Below the pieces are notes generated by a model. The model saw only the letters and a program-made list of their open reading frames with translations, did not search any database and was not told the origin of the DNA. 64,000 nucleotides of DNA from an uncultured Pelagibacteraceae bacterium (GTDB lineage Bacteria > Pseudomonadota > Alphaproteobacteria > Pelagibacterales > AG-422-B15). The translations under genes and the position numbers were made by a program. This document shows, in pieces, positions 40,326 through 46,822 of this stretch (position 1 is its first letter; each line of letters begins with the position of its first letter). The DNA lies in NCBI GenBank assembly GCA_905182145.1, contig CAJJAN010000029.1:11117-75116 (forward strand). The letters run 5' to 3'.

Positions 40326-40823
40326 TTAATTTGTTCTGACTGAAACCGAGCGTCTGTTTTGAGCCCATGATGTATCATTCGAACCACTTTGTACTGGTCG
40401 TTCCTTACCATAACTAATGGTGCTTATTCTATTTGAGCTAATTCCTTGACTCATTAAATAATCTTTTACTGATGAAGCTCTTCTATCGCCTAGTGCTAAG
40501 TTATATTCTCTAGTGCCTCTTTCATCTGCATGTCCTTCTATAGCAATTGCAATAGATGGGTTTGCTTTAAGCCATTTTGCTTGCTTACTCAGAGTTGCTT
40601 GAGCAGAAGCTGCTAATGAATAACTGTCGTATGCAAAGAAAACTCTATCTGGAACATTTACTGCTAACATTTCAATAGTTTCTGTTCCAACGTAAACTCC
40701 TCCAACAACTTGACTTTGACTAGTTGATGAAGTTTCTGTAGGTGCGGTTGCACAAGCTGCAAGAAACGAGGTTAATAGGAAAATAGCAAAGAAATTGCTA
40801 AATTTTTTAATGCTTTGATTCAT
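40326..40823 (-). CDS. pal: Peptidoglycan-associated lipoprotein Pal (OmpA-like domain)
   Basis: Lipobox FLAAC and OmpA-like motifs IEGHADERGTREYNLALGDRRA. Confidence 0.9.
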   Translation of the reverse strand: MNQSIKKFSNFFAIFLLTSFLAACATAPTETSSTSQSQVVGGVYVGTETIEMLAVNVPDRVFFAYDSYSLAASAQATLSKQAKWLKANPSIAIAIEGHADERGTREYNLALGDRRASSVKDYLMSQGISSNRISTISYGKERPVQSGSNDTSWAQNRRSVSVRTN

Positions 40824-40920
40824 TTGTATGTTTTCTCCAAAAATTTAATATTGCCCCTTTTAGTACTCTATTTACTTAATAGTTCCAAGTCTAGATAAAA
40901 TTAAGTGTATTTTTTAGGTT

Positions 40921-42249
40921 TTACTGTAGCAAATTAGACCATGATGGATCAGATCCATCTTGAGGTGTATCAATTTTTCTTTCATTAAAACCTGTTAGGT
41001 CGATGGACCATAAAGTTGAAGAATGACCTTGGCCAGTGTCATTTGCTGGAGTTTCCCGATAAAAAGTAAGTACTCTTCCATTTGGCGACCAAGAAGGTGC
41101 TTCCTGATACCAACTTTCAGTAAGCAATCTTTCTCCCTCTCCATTAGTTCTCATTACTCCAATAGCATAACTACCCTTAAAGTTTTTTGTAAAAGCAATT
41201 AAATCTCCCCTTGGTGACCATACTGGCGTTGCATAATTTCCACCTTTATTGGATATTCTTTTTTGATTTCTACCATCGTTGTCCATTACATATAATTGCT
41301 GACTTCCACCTCTATCTGAATTAAAGGTTATTTTTCTTCCATCTGGTGAATAACTTGGCGAAGTATCAATTGCTGCATTAGTTGTTAATCTAGTAACAAC
41401 TCTACTTTTTAAATCCATTACATAGATATCTGAATTTCCATCTTTTGCTAAACTCATTATAATTTTACTTCCATCTGGAGAAAATCTTGGGGCAAATGTC
41501 ATACCAGGAAAGTCTCCAACAACTTCTTGGTTTCCAGTTTCAATATTCAACAAATATACCCTTGGCAAATTCTTAAAATATGAAAGATAAGTAATTTCTT
41601 GTTTAACTGGGTTAAATCTAGGAGTTAATACTAATTCCTTACCACTAGTTAAATGACGATGATTTGCACCATCTTGATCCATAATTGCTAATTTTTTAAT
41701 TCTTTTATTTTTAGGTCCACTTTCTGAGACATACAATATTCTAGTATCAAAATAACCCTTTTCACCAGTTAGTCTTTCATAAACTTTATCAGAAATCATA
41801 TGGCTAATTCGCCTCCAGTTATCTAATGTAGTTATTAGAACTAAAGCCTCAATTTCTTTTTCTGCAAGTGTATCCCACAATCTAAATTCAACTCTCAATT
41901 TGTCTTCATCAACAATTTTTAGTTTTCCAGTGACTAGGGCTTGAGATTTAATTAATCTCCAATCTTCAAACCTTGGTCTTAAATGCATTGCAGAATTTTT
42001 CTGAATGAAAGCATCTTCATTAATAGGAGCAAATAAACCACATCGCTCCAAGTCTGCCTTAACAACATCAGAGAGATTATTGGAAATTTCATTTAATTTT
42101 AATGAGTCTACTTCATCGTAGAAAAAATCTGAAATGGCGATGGGTAATGGTTCTCTATTGCCCTCCGTTATATCAATTTCTATTAGTGCTATTGCATTGG
42201 TAGTTAAGCAAAAGCTAATAATTGCAAAAAATTTTATAAGTCTTATCAT
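40921..42249 (-). CDS. tolB: Tol-Pal system beta-propeller protein TolB
   Basis: Signal peptide, repeated P.(F/W)SPDG propeller blades (PRFSPDGSKI, PSYSPDGRKI, PVWSPRGDLI, PSWSPNGRVL), and synteny. Confidence 0.9.
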   Translation of the reverse strand: MIRLIKFFAIISFCLTTNAIALIEIDITEGNREPLPIAISDFFYDEVDSLKLNEISNNLSDVVKADLERCGLFAPINEDAFIQKNSAMHLRPRFEDWRLIKSQALVTGKLKIVDEDKLRVEFRLWDTLAEKEIEALVLITTLDNWRRISHMISDKVYERLTGEKGYFDTRILYVSESGPKNKRIKKLAIMDQDGANHRHLTSGKELVLTPRFNPVKQEITYLSYFKNLPRVYLLNIETGNQEVVGDFPGMTFAPRFSPDGSKIIMSLAKDGNSDIYVMDLKSRVVTRLTTNAAIDTSPSYSPDGRKITFNSDRGGSQQLYVMDNDGRNQKRISNKGGNYATPVWSPRGDLIAFTKNFKGSYAIGVMRTNGEGERLLTESWYQEAPSWSPNGRVLTFYRETPANDTGQGHSSTLWSIDLTGFNERKIDTPQDGSDPSWSNLLQ

Positions 42250-42254
42250 GATAG

Positions 42255-43061
42255 TTACCTTAGTATTTCTCTTGGATCAAAATTAAGTTGAAGAGTTTTC
42301 CAATCTTCATATCTATCTATTGAAGGAGTTTTAATTGGATCACACCTTCTTACTGCTCTTAAAGCACTTTCTGCCAATACTTTAAAATATTTTTGACTTG
42401 GTTTGTTCATTCTCTGATGATCAGTTACTTCAGGTGGTTTCATTAATGAGCCATCTTGCCTTAATGATATCTTAACTTTCACCACCAAGCTATCATCTTC
42501 GGGCATTCCTATGGGTATACTCCAACAGCGTAAAAATTGTGATCTTATGGCGTCTTCTTCGCTTAATGTCAGTTTGTCGACCAGAGTATCGGTTGAGTCT
42601 AGAGACTCGTATTCTTCATCCTTAGCGTCTTCAATCGGCTTAGTGTCTTGTGCCATATCAATAAGTTCTGCAATTTTTAATGGGTCAAAATTATCTTTCT
42701 TTTTTATTACTGGCTTCCTAATGGGCATATTCACAACTGATTTTTTTTCTACTACTTCAGGTTTAATAATTTCTTCCTCTGGGGCTGGATCTTTAATTTT
42801 TTCATCTGATTTTTCTATCTTTGGTTTAAGAATTGGCTGATTGATCTTTAGATTATCTTTTTTTTTATTATCCTCTTCTTTTTCAACAACTTCTCTTTTG
42901 CTAACTTCTGGAACATTAGTTTGTTCAGTAATTTCTAATATTTCAACTTGTACAACAGGAGGAATATCAATTACTGGTGAATTAAAGATAGGTAGCCCTA
43001 AAATTGTTAAAACAATGAATCCAATATGTAGAAGTGATGAGGTAATAATTGAAATCTGCAT
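42255..43061 (-). CDS. tolA: TolA-like protein (TM anchor, Lys/Glu/Pro-rich linker, TolA/TonB-like C-domain)
   Basis: N-terminal TM helix, a charged low-complexity linker (EKEEDNKKKDNLK...PAPEEEIIKPEVVEKK), and a position between tolR and tolB. Confidence 0.7.
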   Translation of the reverse strand: MQISIITSSLLHIGFIVLTILGLPIFNSPVIDIPPVVQVEILEITEQTNVPEVSKREVVEKEEDNKKKDNLKINQPILKPKIEKSDEKIKDPAPEEEIIKPEVVEKKSVVNMPIRKPVIKKKDNFDPLKIAELIDMAQDTKPIEDAKDEEYESLDSTDTLVDKLTLSEEDAIRSQFLRCWSIPIGMPEDDSLVVKVKISLRQDGSLMKPPEVTDHQRMNKPSQKYFKVLAESALRAVRRCDPIKTPSIDRYEDWKTLQLNFDPREILR

Positions 43062-43079
43062 ATTTGTGGCATTACATAA

Positions 43080-43484
43080 TTAATTAGTTATAGGTTTAGT
43101 TATTAAAGCTACTTTAGAAAAACCTGATCCAGACAACTCGCCCAATACTCGCATAACTTTTCCATAGTTAATCACTTCATCTCCTCTAACATAAATTTTT
43201 GTATCCAATCTATTTTCTGTAATAGCAACTAGTTTAGGAATTAGCTCTTTAATATTAACCTCAGTTTCTTGAATATAAATATTACCATCTTTAGATATTG
43301 TTAATTCTAAAGGCTCGTTATCAGACTGAAGAGAGTCAGCATTACTTTCCGGTAAATCAACTTGTACTCCTACTGTTAATAATGGTGCAGTTACCATAAA
43401 AATAATTAGCAAAACCAACATTACATCAACGAACGGAGTTACGTTTATTTCACTGAAGGGTTTAGATTTAATATTTCTAGGCAT
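43080..43484 (-). CDS. tolR: Biopolymer transport protein TolR (ExbD family)
   Basis: EINVTPFVDVMLVLLIIFMV motif, 134 aa, and synteny. Confidence 0.85.
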   Translation of the reverse strand: MPRNIKSKPFSEINVTPFVDVMLVLLIIFMVTAPLLTVGVQVDLPESNADSLQSDNEPLELTISKDGNIYIQETEVNIKELIPKLVAITENRLDTKIYVRGDEVINYGKVMRVLGELSGSGFSKVALITKPITN

Positions 43485-43487
43485 AAA

Positions 43488-44195
43488 TTAAATCACCTTC
43501 TTTGTATCTAAGCCTCTTAAAAAAATATTGTTAAATTGATCTTTGAACCTATACATGCGAGCTGACTCTTTATTTACCTGACCAGTAAACAAATTATATG
43601 CAATCACGGCTGGAATTGCGGCCAATAATCCAAGTGCGGTTGCAAATAAGGCTTCGGCTATACCAGGAGCTACAACAGCTAGGCTTGTGTTCTTTGAAAT
43701 AGCAATAGATTGAAATGAATTCATTATACCCCAAACTGTTCCAAATAACCCTATGAATGGAGAGGTAGAGCCTATCGTAGCTAAATAGTTAAACATACTT
43801 GATAACTTTTCAGTCTCCAAATCTATCGAAGACTCTATTACAGCATCAAGACGAGTTGGAAGAGATGAAACGCTTTTTTCACTTTCAGATTTTTTTATTT
43901 CTTTTACAGCGTCATCAAAAACATTTTTCACAGGAAAATCTTCAGTATCTTTAAATTCTAACTGTATTGCTTTGATTGATTTACCAGACCAAAAAACAGA
44001 GTCAAAGTTATCACTCAGTTCTTTGATTTTTTTAAAAAGCTTGATCTTTTGAATTATAATTGCCCATGAAAAAACAGAAGCTGCAAAAAGCATCAAGATG
44101 ACTAACTTAACAACTAAGTCAGCTCTAAAAAAAAGCGATATTAACGTGAACTCATCATTAACCTGAGCACTTATTTCTAATACGTCTGTTTCCAT
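43488..44195 (-). CDS. tolQ: Tol-Pal system protein TolQ (MotA/TolQ/ExbB family)
   Basis: [21 protein letters not shown] and [15 protein letters not shown] motifs. Confidence 0.9.
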
Positions 44196-44246
44196 AATAT
44201 CTTGATGGTTTAAAAAAATGTCATAATTAGGGCAATACTTCTAAAT

Positions 44247-44624
44247 TTAGATTTTCTTATCTTTAAGTAGCAATTTATATAATTCTAAAAAATCATCTAA
44301 TTTTATTATACATAGTGATTCACCAGTTTCTTGCCTATTTCTTCTAGTAATTACAACTGGCATTGATTCAGATTTTGAAATTTCAATATTTTCTCTGACT
44401 TGAGCCACAGATTGATGTATTTGGAATTTTTCAGTTCTTTTTGCTTCTACATATATGTGGGGTGTATTTTTTAAATCACTTCCACCAGAAGATTTTACCG
44501 CACCACCACCTGACAGAGGTGCTCTTTGCACAAGATCTTCATTATCAAATACAATCTTATTGAAATATTTTGCTAGCTCTCTTTCGTAACCATCGCCTTT
44601 TCTTTTGGGTGCTTTTCCTGACAT
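44247..44624 (-). CDS. PD-(D/E)XK nuclease resembling the archaeal Holliday-junction resolvase Hjc
   Basis: 125 aa. KGDGYERELAKYF (E14), GGSDLK (D50), and YVEAKRT (E60-x-K62) match the Hjc E...D...ExK layout. Sits between yebC and tolQ. Confidence 0.55.
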   Translation of the reverse strand: MSGKAPKRKGDGYERELAKYFNKIVFDNEDLVQRAPLSGGGAVKSSGGSDLKNTPHIYVEAKRTEKFQIHQSVAQVRENIEISKSESMPVVITRRNRQETGESLCIIKLDDFLELYKLLLKDKKI

Positions 44625-44696
44625 ATAGTAATTCGAATCAAATTATTTATAATTTAGAGGTTAATTTAATTAATAATAAATAACAGTTAATAATAA

Positions 44697-45440
44697 CTAA
44701 GCTAGACTTGAAATGTCTTCTTCGGATACATCATAATTTGAAAATACTGCCTGAACATCTTCATTGTCATCTAATTCATCTAATAAATTAAATAATATTT
44801 TAACTTTTTCTCCAGTTACATCTATCAAATTAGATGGCTTCCATAGAAATCCTGAAGATTCTGGTTCTTTAAAAATATTCTCTAGAGAGCTATAGAAGGC
44901 CGCTAAATTATCAGGTGAACATAAGGCTTCAAAACCATCATCTTCAAATAAACAGTCTTCCGCTCCAGATTCTATAGCTGAAGAAAAAAATTCATCTTGG
45001 TTACAAATAGATGTTGGGTATTTTAAAAAACCATAACGTGTAAATTGATGAGATACCGATCCACTTTCAGCAAAATTACCACCATTTTTTTGAAATATTG
45101 CTCTAATATCTGCAGCTGACCTATTTCGATTATCTGTTAAGGCTTCTACAATAATAGAAGTGCCAGCTGGACCAAAGCCTTCATATCTTATTTCATCAAA
45201 CATACCCATTGACTTGTCAGAAGATTTCTTAATTGCTCTTTCAATATTCTCTCTTGGAAAGCTTGCTGCTTTTGCAACTTGTATCGCAGATCTAAGTCGA
45301 GCATTCTGATCTGGATCTGGCATACCTGATTTTGCCGCAACAGTTATTTCTTTTGAAAGTTTTGAAAATAAGACTGCTCTTTTTTTATCTTGAGCACCTT
45401 TTCGAAATTGAATATTTTTAAATTTAGAATGGCCTGCCAT
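44697..45440 (-). CDS. yebC: YebC/PmpR family DNA-binding regulatory protein
   Basis: MAGHSKFKNIQFRKGAQDKKR N-terminus. 247 aa. Confidence 0.9.
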   Translation of the reverse strand: MAGHSKFKNIQFRKGAQDKKRAVLFSKLSKEITVAAKSGMPDPDQNARLRSAIQVAKAASFPRENIERAIKKSSDKSMGMFDEIRYEGFGPAGTSIIVEALTDNRNRSAADIRAIFQKNGGNFAESGSVSHQFTRYGFLKYPTSICNQDEFFSSAIESGAEDCLFEDDGFEALCSPDNLAAFYSSLENIFKEPESSGFLWKPSNLIDVTGEKVKILFNLLDELDDNEDVQAVFSNYDVSEEDISSLA

Positions 45441-45442
45441 TT

Positions 45443-46243
45443 TTATTTTCCTAGAACGCCACCAATTTTAATTGGTTCTATTGTTTTAGCAAGACCAGTC
45501 TCTAAATCTGACTCAATAACTACCCCGCACAGGGTGGCCTCACCTAATGCAGGGGAAAATTTAGACTTACTTTTCATGCCAAGGAATCTCTCTAAGATTG
45601 GCTCTTTATTCATCCCAATAATTGAGTTGTAGTCTCCACACATACCTGCATCAGTTTGGTACGCTGTTCCTCCTGGAAGTATATGGCCATCTGCAGTTGG
45701 AATATGTTGATGAGTTCCCACCACAGCACTTACCCTGCCATCCAAATGGTGCCCCATGGCAACTTTTTCACTTGTAGCTTCAGCATGAAAATCAACAAAA
45801 ATAAATTTTAGATCGCTACCTAGTCGGTGCTTTCTCATAATTTCTTCAACTTTTAGAAAAGGGTTATCATCAGGCTTCATAAAAACATTGCCAATAAGAT
45901 TTATGACCATAATACTCTCGTCTTTTGCTGTTTTATATATATTGAACCCAAGGCCTGGTGTGCCTTCTGGAAAGTTGTAAGGCTTTAATAAATTGCCATC
46001 TTTAGCGATATAATCAACTATTTCTTTTTGATCCCATAAATGATTGCCAGTTGTAATTACGTCACCGCCATATGAATAAATATCTCTACATATGTCTTCG
46101 GTAATACCAAATCCACCTGCAGAATTTTCACCATTTATAATGGTAAAATCAATTTGATATTTTTGCTTAATTTCTTTTAAATTGTTTTGCAGGGCTTTTC
46201 TGCCAGCTCTACCAATAATATCTCCAAGGAATAATACTCTCAT
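45443..46243 (-). CDS. YmdB-like calcineurin-fold metallophosphoesterase (TIGR00282 type)
   Basis: MRVLFLGDIIGRAGR, INGENSAGGFGIT, TGNHLWD, and DFHAEATSEK motifs. Confidence 0.8.
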   Translation of the reverse strand: MRVLFLGDIIGRAGRKALQNNLKEIKQKYQIDFTIINGENSAGGFGITEDICRDIYSYGGDVITTGNHLWDQKEIVDYIAKDGNLLKPYNFPEGTPGLGFNIYKTAKDESIMVINLIGNVFMKPDDNPFLKVEEIMRKHRLGSDLKFIFVDFHAEATSEKVAMGHHLDGRVSAVVGTHQHIPTADGHILPGGTAYQTDAGMCGDYNSIIGMNKEPILERFLGMKSKSKFSPALGEATLCGVVIESDLETGLAKTIEPIKIGGVLGK

Positions 46244-46822
46244 TTAAACCTTATATAAATACTTTTCAGTTAAAATCCAATTAAGTTTTTTATCCATACT
46301 ATTATTTGGTACCTCATTAATTTTTTGGAATGAATAACCAACACCTATCTTTATGGACATGTTTTCATTATTTTCTAATTCTTCAATATATTTATCATAA
46401 TAACCGCCACCATAACCTAAGCGATTTCCATTATCATCAAATGCGAGAAGTGGAATAAATAACACAGATGGAATAATAACTTTATTTTTATCACTTGGTT
46501 CTAATATGCCATATTTACCTTTTACTAATTCTTCACCCTCTTTCAGTTCTCTAAATATCATTTGATTAGAATCTTCATCTATACAAGGCAGGGATATAGA
46601 AATTTTTTTTGAAAATAATAAGGTGATTAAATTATTTGTATCTATTTCATTATTATATGGCTGAAATATAGATACGTGTTGAGTGATAAATGAATCAATT
46701 AATGGCTTGATATGAACATGCAAATTATTAGTGATGTCATTTATACTGGCATATGAAGATCTTCTATTGAGCAAAAATTTACGTAAAGCTGATTTCTCAG
46801 ACTTGTTGTTAAAATCAGACAT
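46244..46822 (-). CDS. 5-formyltetrahydrofolate cyclo-ligase
   Basis: LGYGGGYYDKY motif, 192 aa, and the conserved neighbourhood with zapA. Confidence 0.8.
   Translation of the reverse strand: MSDFNNKSEKSALRKFLLNRRSSYASINDITNNLHVHIKPLIDSFITQHVSIFQPYNNEIDTNNLITLLFSKKISISLPCIDEDSNQMIFRELKEGEELVKGKYGILEPSDKNKVIIPSVLFIPLLAFDDNGNRLGYGGGYYDKYIEELENNENMSIKIGVGYSFQKINEVPNNSMDKKLNWILTEKYLYKV

Follow-up and report, generated by a model that had tools for sequence, protein, structure and literature searches.

SAR11 bacteria are the most abundant bacteria of the ocean, and nearly all free-living bacteria have RuvABC. The locus described here raises the question of which enzyme occupies, in SAR11, the site at which related alphaproteobacteria carry ruvC-ruvA-ruvB-ybgC, and of how Holliday junctions would then be processed. 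In the window, by which is meant the whole 64-kb stretch of SAR11 (Pelagibacteraceae) DNA that was analysed (33% GC), yebC and tolQ enclose a single gene, ORF X (44247..44624, minus strand, 378 nt), which has an ATG start and encodes a 125-aa Hjc-like PD-(D/E)XK nuclease (PF24608 / PHROG 244), a putative Holliday-junction resolvase. The most likely explanation of the arrangement is that this phage-type, Hjc-like putative resolvase, probably working with RecG, displaced the RuvABC resolvasome in situ long ago.

A first-pass annotation of this DNA had pointed to a 125-aa ORF with the motifs KGDGYERELAKYF (Glu14), GGSDLK (Asp50) and YVEAKR (Glu60, Lys62), and these are present exactly as claimed, giving the predicted catalytic residues E14, S49-D50 and E60-A61-K62. 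Three basic residues (R15, R34 and R94) and a flexible Gly-rich loop (residues 37-49) are also found. The flanking genes that had been named have been confirmed with NCBIfam: yebC, of the YebC/PmpR family (44697..45440, minus strand), lies upstream (NF001030, 293.7 bits, cutoff 243), and tolQ, gene 1 of the tol-pal cluster (43488..44195, minus strand), lies downstream (TIGR02796, 247.7 bits, cutoff 221). The conserved downstream context used for synteny (40326..43484) continues on the minus strand with tolR (43080..43484), an ORF in the TolA position (42255..43061), tolB (40921..42249) and pal (40326..40823), where tolR, tolB and pal score above their NCBIfam cutoffs. The TolA-position ORF (268 aa) is assigned by position; it is divergent, rich in lysine and glutamate, and has no NCBIfam match at E <= 1e-5. 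The conserved upstream context consists of a ymdB-type metallophosphoesterase (45443..46243, minus strand) and a 5-formyl-THF cyclo-ligase (46244..46822, minus strand), whose counterparts in the SAR11 type strain HTCC1062 are SAR11_0591 and SAR11_0590, respectively. On the minus strand, ORF X is separated from yebC by 72 nt (44625..44696), in which there is no ruvC remnant, and from tolQ by 51 nt (44196..44246), in which there is no ruvB or ybgC remnant, both spacers being too short to hold one.

Family, residues and predicted fold of ORF X

The ORF X protein belongs to Pfam PF24608 (PDDEXK_15), which it matches over residues 7-119 with 29.4 bits against a gathering cutoff of 27, and which Pfam describes as a phage putative PDDEXK endonuclease. 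It also matches PHROG 244 (HMM, E 2.5e-19), and the members of the family are for the most part phage proteins. The same two assignments extend to its relatives, with PHROG 244 being matched by 55 of 55 and PF24608 by 52 of 55, while PF01870 (Hjc) is matched by three of the 55, at best with 2e-5. ORF X alone has no match to PF01870 even at E <= 10. No NCBIfam model is matched, and neither Pfam nor NCBIfam gives a match to RuvC (TIGR00228 / PF02075), although the same NCBIfam library scores the real RuvC of a related metagenomic contig (L175) at 117 bits. The Pfam models for RusA (PF05866), RecU (PF03838) and VRR-NUC are likewise not matched. In structure searches the Foldseek probability of RecU against X is only 0.14, and one VRR-NUC protein appears only at rank 37 among the matches in BFVD, a set of predicted viral structures. 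Zero families of the PADLOC defence models match at E <= 1. T7 endonuclease I, whose E-D-E-K spacing is similar, was considered and rejected, having no Pfam match and being absent from the top 50 Foldseek PDB matches.

The relationship to Hjc becomes visible at the level of profiles. A single-sequence search of the PDB with ORF X returned only designed helical repeats. An exhaustive profile search gathered 1657 clusters (50% identity) at E <= 1e-3, and two profiles were used, a shallower one of 41 homologues (A1) and one of 55 representatives of 50%-identity clusters (A3). When A3 was compared with all PDB sequences (hmmsearch), the top seven matches consisted entirely of Hjc, Hje and Hjc_15-6 proteins, with Sulfolobus solfataricus Hjc (4TKD, E 1.2e-4) in first place and the others including 1HH1, 7BGS (Hjc_15-6), ST1444, Pyrococcus furiosus Hjc and Hje. 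Aligned with a small Hjc alignment (hhalign), A3 reached 94.7% probability (E 6e-8) with the catalytic residues in register, and A1 reached 69.5%. The Pyrococcus Hjc sequence given in the first-pass annotation is correct (1GEF), and its reading of the ORF as a Hjc-like nuclease is supported by the PDB matches of the profile and by the profile alignment, the best Foldseek matches of the predicted structure in the PDB also being Hjc and Hje. Its proposed check of PF01870 against other PD-(D/E)XK families has a divided outcome, in that homology to Hjc holds at profile level and membership of PF01870 does not. On sequence evidence ORF X is Hjc-like by homology, its strict membership being in PF24608 and not in PF01870.

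Residue conservation agrees with this placement. None of the 41 homologues in A1 departs from E14, D50, E60 and K62, and across the 55 cluster representatives these residues are invariant or at least 90% conserved, so the catalytic motifs are not a product of chance, and after alignment they are retained in register with E9, D33, E46 and K48 of Hjc. In P. furiosus Hjc, seven residues have been reported to be essential, namely E9, R10, R25, D33, E46, K48 and K81 (reviewed in PMC10956419). Their equivalents in X are E14, R15, R34, D50, E60, K62 and R94, all of them invariant or at least 90% conserved; R15 and R34 are aligned by hhalign directly with R10 and R25, while the pairing of R94 with K81 is an ungapped extension, three residues past the printed alignment. 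An AF2 model of ORF X has a pLDDT of 85.9, with residues 1-4 and part of the Gly-rich loop (40-45) less confident. Its best PDB matches in Foldseek are Archaeoglobus fulgidus Hjc, Hje and ST1444, with probabilities of 0.84-0.98 but modest E values of about 0.03 and TM scores of 0.47-0.49. In BFVD, 31 structures matched at E <= 1e-3, the TM scores reaching 0.82, and several of these structures are named Holliday junction resolvase.

Among known systems, the archaeal enzymes Hjc and Hje (PF01870; P. furiosus 1GEF, S. solfataricus 1HH1/4TKD, A. fulgidus 2WCW) are the best fold and profile matches of X. Like X, they are small PD-(D/E)XK alpha/beta nucleases of about 125-145 aa, and they share with it the N-terminal 'KG..ERE' helix, the R..(A/P).SG element, a flexible loop, (S/P)D and E.K. 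They differ in that the spacing from Asp to Glu is 13 residues in Hjc and 10 in X, that the loop of X is Gly-rich (LSGGG...GG), unlike that of Hjc, and that X is bacterial and phage-borne. Hjc_15-6 of the Thermus phage Tth15-6 (PDB 7BGS/7BNX) is a phage-encoded resolvase of the archaeal type that cuts X-shaped DNA, and its motif E10-S39D40-E53V54K55 corresponds to E14-S49D50-E60A61K62 of X (PMC8805305). It is matched by the A3 profile at E 0.008, in an alignment that covers the N-terminal part only, and it differs from X in being thermophilic, 163 aa long and encoded by a phage, not by the core genome of a cell. Within the family of X itself, gp22 of the Roseobacter phage CRP-810 (PF24608, PHROG 244) is 46% identical and sits in a replication/recombination module that also encodes an annealing protein, a primase-polymerase and a PD-(D/E)XK nuclease. 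Phage copies of the family frequently carry acidic C-terminal extensions, and a function can be attributed to them by inference only. No PF24608 protein with a biochemically assayed activity is known to us.

The names given to X proteins in databases are at odds with one another: "Holliday junction resolvase" in IMG, "ruvC" in HTCC1062, "hypothetical protein" at NCBI and 'RusA-like' for PHROG 244. Since X matches no RuvC model while the model library recognises a real RuvC, the HTCC1062 label is a misnomer, and since RusA is of an unrelated fold and family whose model (PF05866) does not match X, the PHROG label is misleading. Both hide the true family, and the assignment given here corrects them. 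The function of X is already implied by public annotation, and neither its protein family nor its type of enzyme is new.

Hjc-fold nucleases are able to act on other branched DNA. An alternative reading takes X for a phage nuclease that was domesticated for another job, such as the trimming of flaps or of stalled forks, a part in restriction or defence, or a task linked to YebC or Tol-Pal, its position in the ruv slot then being coincidental. The similarity of X alone to Hjc is only remote, the description of PF24608 goes no further than 'putative' endonuclease and the family names are homology-based labels, all of which lend this reading some room. Against it stand the lack of any PADLOC match, the absence of a partner methylase or immunity gene beside what is a lone gene amid housekeeping genes at 51 of 51 loci, and the conservation in X of Hjc junction-binding residues beyond the catalytic ones. 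Furthermore, without X, HTCC1062 would be left with only the YqgF-type 'putative resolvase' SAR11_1079, despite the high recombination rates of SAR11 (cited in PMC3448164). This alternative is consequently regarded as unlikely, and a role in resolving Holliday junctions is preferred for X.

The slot in related alphaproteobacteria and the ancestry of ORF X

The ruvC-ruvA-ruvB-ybgC block that the first-pass annotation had placed between yebC and tolQ is indeed seen there in relatives of SAR11. Scanning metagenomes for RuvB genes of the AT-rich kind revealed sister-lineage loci of marine alphaproteobacteria with about 30% GC, whose genes are 42-67% identical to those of the window and stand in the same order. 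Two AT-rich marine alphaproteobacterial lineages carry the full yebC-ruvC-ruvA-ruvB-ybgC-tolQ arrangement at the spot of X. Contigs L086 and L075 read 5-formyl-THF ligase - ymdB - yebC - ruvC - ruvA - ruvB - ybgC - tolQ - tolR - tolA, and L175 reads suhB - efp - ... - gap - zapA - ligase - ymdB - yebC upstream, followed by ruvC - ruvA - ruvB - ybgC - tolQ - tolR - tolA - tolB - pal - TPR - tilS - ftsH, its RuvC and YbgC-family thioesterase having been confirmed with NCBIfam. A further contig (L101) starts within ruvB and continues ruvB-ybgC-tolQ-tolR. The window presents the same gene chain, with X (378 nt) where the relatives carry ruvC-ruvA-ruvB-ybgC (~2.5 kb).

The L175 contig (416,834 bp) stems from an abundant, highly microdiverse lineage of about 30% GC that has a SAR11-like order in this region and has kept ruvCAB-ybgC; it carries thiE in place of the fba-pgk of the window and lacks the tkt between gap and zapA, and the lineage may be the HIMB59/AEGEAN-169 group. 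The long-read contigs L002, L003, L174 and L176 contain split genes, among them tolB and yebC, and also fused ones, such as ymdB joined to yebC (446-515 aa). These look like indel errors rather than pseudogenes because sibling contigs are intact.

Within SAR11 the arrangement is uniform. The X protein is encoded by 47 species-level genomes of Pelagibacteraceae/Pelagibacterales with 73-96% identity, and the order yebC-X-tolQ is found in 51 of 51 SAR11 loci, with near-constant spacers and X intact. At the more distant SAR11 loci X is 75-83% identical, compared with mostly 62-69% for YebC and TolQ. Median dN/dS is 0.06 for X, 0.07 for yebC and 0.04 for tolQ, and X is a core SAR11 gene under purifying selection. 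Its GC and GC3 match those of its neighbours and are host-like, and the exact protein occurs on 463 contigs.

Beyond SAR11 the identity falls abruptly, to 56% or less. Relatives are found on 334 IMG/VR contigs (identity <=56%, GC 41-67%), and the non-SAR11 relatives lie in phage or prophage-like contexts, which include runs of small unknown ORFs. In the window there are no phage genes near X. The phage contexts could be taken to mean that X is a decaying prophage remnant, or even a spurious ORF, without a cellular function; a dN/dS similar to that of yebC and tolQ, an intact frame at every one of the 51 loci, conservation above that of its neighbours, host-matching GC and GC3, the lack of nearby phage genes and the recurrence of the exact protein on hundreds of contigs leave next to no probability for this. 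Because of the abrupt drop in identity outside SAR11, the phage setting of the relatives and the host-like GC and GC3, the sequences point to an old phage capture followed by full amelioration, and not to a resident prophage. Where an archaeal/phage-type resolvase had been suggested at first, the nearest relatives of X are phage genes and not archaeal ones.

One protein of 150 aa (P0053, on a 15.9-kb contig) has an EF-P N-terminus (MKINGNAVKPGMIVEHKG...VKPGKG) joined to an X-type nuclease at a common 'KG' motif, and probably arose from chimeric assembly or faulty gene calling.

Junction processing in SAR11

The gene content of SAR11 outside this locus was assessed from the HTCC1062 gene table (sheet "All Gene Locations" of Smith et al., 2010, PLoS One, PMC2864753), which lists ~1351 genes, is near-complete with 96-100 entries per hundred locus tags, and speaks at the level of annotation for a strain other than that of the window. 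It holds zero entries for "ruvA", "ruvB", "branch migration" or "Holliday junction DNA helicase"; the word "Holliday" occurs once, for SAR11_1079, the YqgF-type putative resolvase, and the five "helicase" entries are uvrD, rlhE, suv3, dnaB and recG (PMC2864753). Its sole "ruvC" is SAR11_0593, named "crossover junction endodeoxyribonuclease" (PMC2864753). This gene stands in the order cyclo-ligase, hypotheticals 0591 and 0592, 0593, tolQ (0594), tolR and tolA, followed later by mesJ (0600), ftsH (0601) and folP (0602). Because this order equals that of the window gene for gene, SAR11_0593 is X by position, an identification made on gene order only. The strain also has recG (SAR11_0993), recA (SAR11_0641) and priA (SAR11_0234), as well as a ybgC-named thioesterase elsewhere in the genome (SAR11_0872) (PMC2864753). 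The first-pass annotation's suggestion that RuvC was replaced thus gains from this table, in which no canonical ruvABC appears elsewhere and the only 'ruvC' lies at the position of X. Its remark that ybgC is missing holds for the tol locus but not for the genome of HTCC1062.

It could be supposed that X replaced RuvC only, and that RuvA and RuvB persist elsewhere in SAR11 and bring junctions to X in the manner of RuvAB-RecU in Firmicutes, an established precedent for such a replacement. Searches for SAR11 RuvB leave this supposition some latitude: protein searches were saturated by matches from the query's own, non-SAR11 lineages, and an AT-rich Walker-B pattern run against metagenomes found no SAR11-like RuvB, a weak negative because the pattern is codon-dependent and also missed an abundant sister lineage on codon choice. 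The HTCC1062 table, on the other hand, contains neither ruvA nor ruvB and all five of its helicases are otherwise named; RuvB is too conserved to stay 'hypothetical', which makes a miss by the annotation pipeline unlikely. Within the 64-kb window (searched by regex only) and in ~14 kb of added flanks, none of the four genes of the block was found. As ruvC-ruvA-ruvB-ybgC are contiguous in the relatives, a single deletion removes all four. The persistence of RuvA and RuvB is therefore held to be distinctly improbable.

With displacement of the whole resolvasome preferred, we consider it probable that X is a phage-derived Hjc-like endonuclease that replaced ruvC-ruvA-ruvB-ybgC in place, with RecG as its likely partner. 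An ancestor of the Pelagibacteraceae would have captured the nuclease gene from a phage, and the captured gene would have taken the place of the four genes between yebC and tolQ. By analogy with Hjc and Hjc_15-6, a homodimer of X may bind four-way junctions through R15, R34, R94 and the flexible Gly-rich loop, and its predicted metal site (E14, D50 and E60-x-K62) would make paired nicks by which the junction is resolved; in Hjc and Hje the active sites lie about 22-29 Å apart. RecG (SAR11_0993 in HTCC1062) would move junctions by branch migration, a task that most likely falls to it because RuvA and RuvB appear absent.

It has been reported that archaeal Hjc restores repair in E. coli lacking RuvC (reviewed in PMC10956419). 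In Firmicutes and Mollicutes, RecU is, as proposed for X, a PD-(D/E)XK resolvase that stands in RuvC's stead across a bacterial lineage; it works with a retained RuvAB and is of a different family from X. RusA, from the E. coli cryptic prophage DLP12, offers a functional model for X and RecG as a phage-derived resolvase, although its fold and family (PF05866) are unrelated to those of X. When expressed, RusA makes RuvABC dispensable, and RecG is required for this.

A broader proposal is that all Pelagibacteraceae process Holliday junctions without RuvA, RuvB and RuvC, through one ancient swap of a four-gene block for a phage-derived Hjc-like core enzyme together with RecG, and that such a stripped-down, sequence-unspecific resolution may partly explain the unusually high recombination-to-mutation ratio of SAR11; this is favoured only slightly. 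If X and RecG do replace the three-protein resolvasome, the locus would be a clear example from nature of non-orthologous displacement in situ, saving ~2 kb in a streamlined genome, and a natural parallel to the suppression of ruv mutants that RusA brings about in laboratory E. coli. It would also provide a concrete, testable handle on recombination in SAR11. The evolutionary twist is one that specialists in DNA repair and in marine microbiology may find notable. In the searchable literature no statement was found that the SAR11 "ruvC" is phage-type and Hjc-like, that ruvC-ruvA-ruvB-ybgC gave way to it at this site, or that SAR11 lacks RuvAB, and the SAR11 genome papers, as far as their full text is accessible, make no mention of ruv genes.

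Sequence elements around ORF X

A free-standing GIY-YIG nuclease-domain protein of 87 aa is encoded on contig L178 (9338-9601), ~0.4 kb past the left end of the window. Terminator prediction on the coding strand gave nothing between yebC, X and tolQ, and inspection by eye of the region upstream of X showed no evident LexA box (GTTC-N7-GTTC). A TGCC-N3-A-TTA-GACA block in the spacer upstream of tolQ (44196-44246) is kept in all aligned SAR11 loci and overlaps a promoter-like ATGACA-17-GATATT site. The position of this promoter-like conserved block after X suggests, from its sequence, that tolQ may have its own promoter directly behind ORF X. In the other spacer, the hexamer GATTCG (44634-44639, minus strand) lies 9 nt before the ATG of X and is invariant in 16 of 16 aligned SAR11 loci, while the remaining spacer is variable. 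It includes a GANTC site, which is the CcrM methylation motif of alphaproteobacteria, and it may act in regulation or in ribosome binding.
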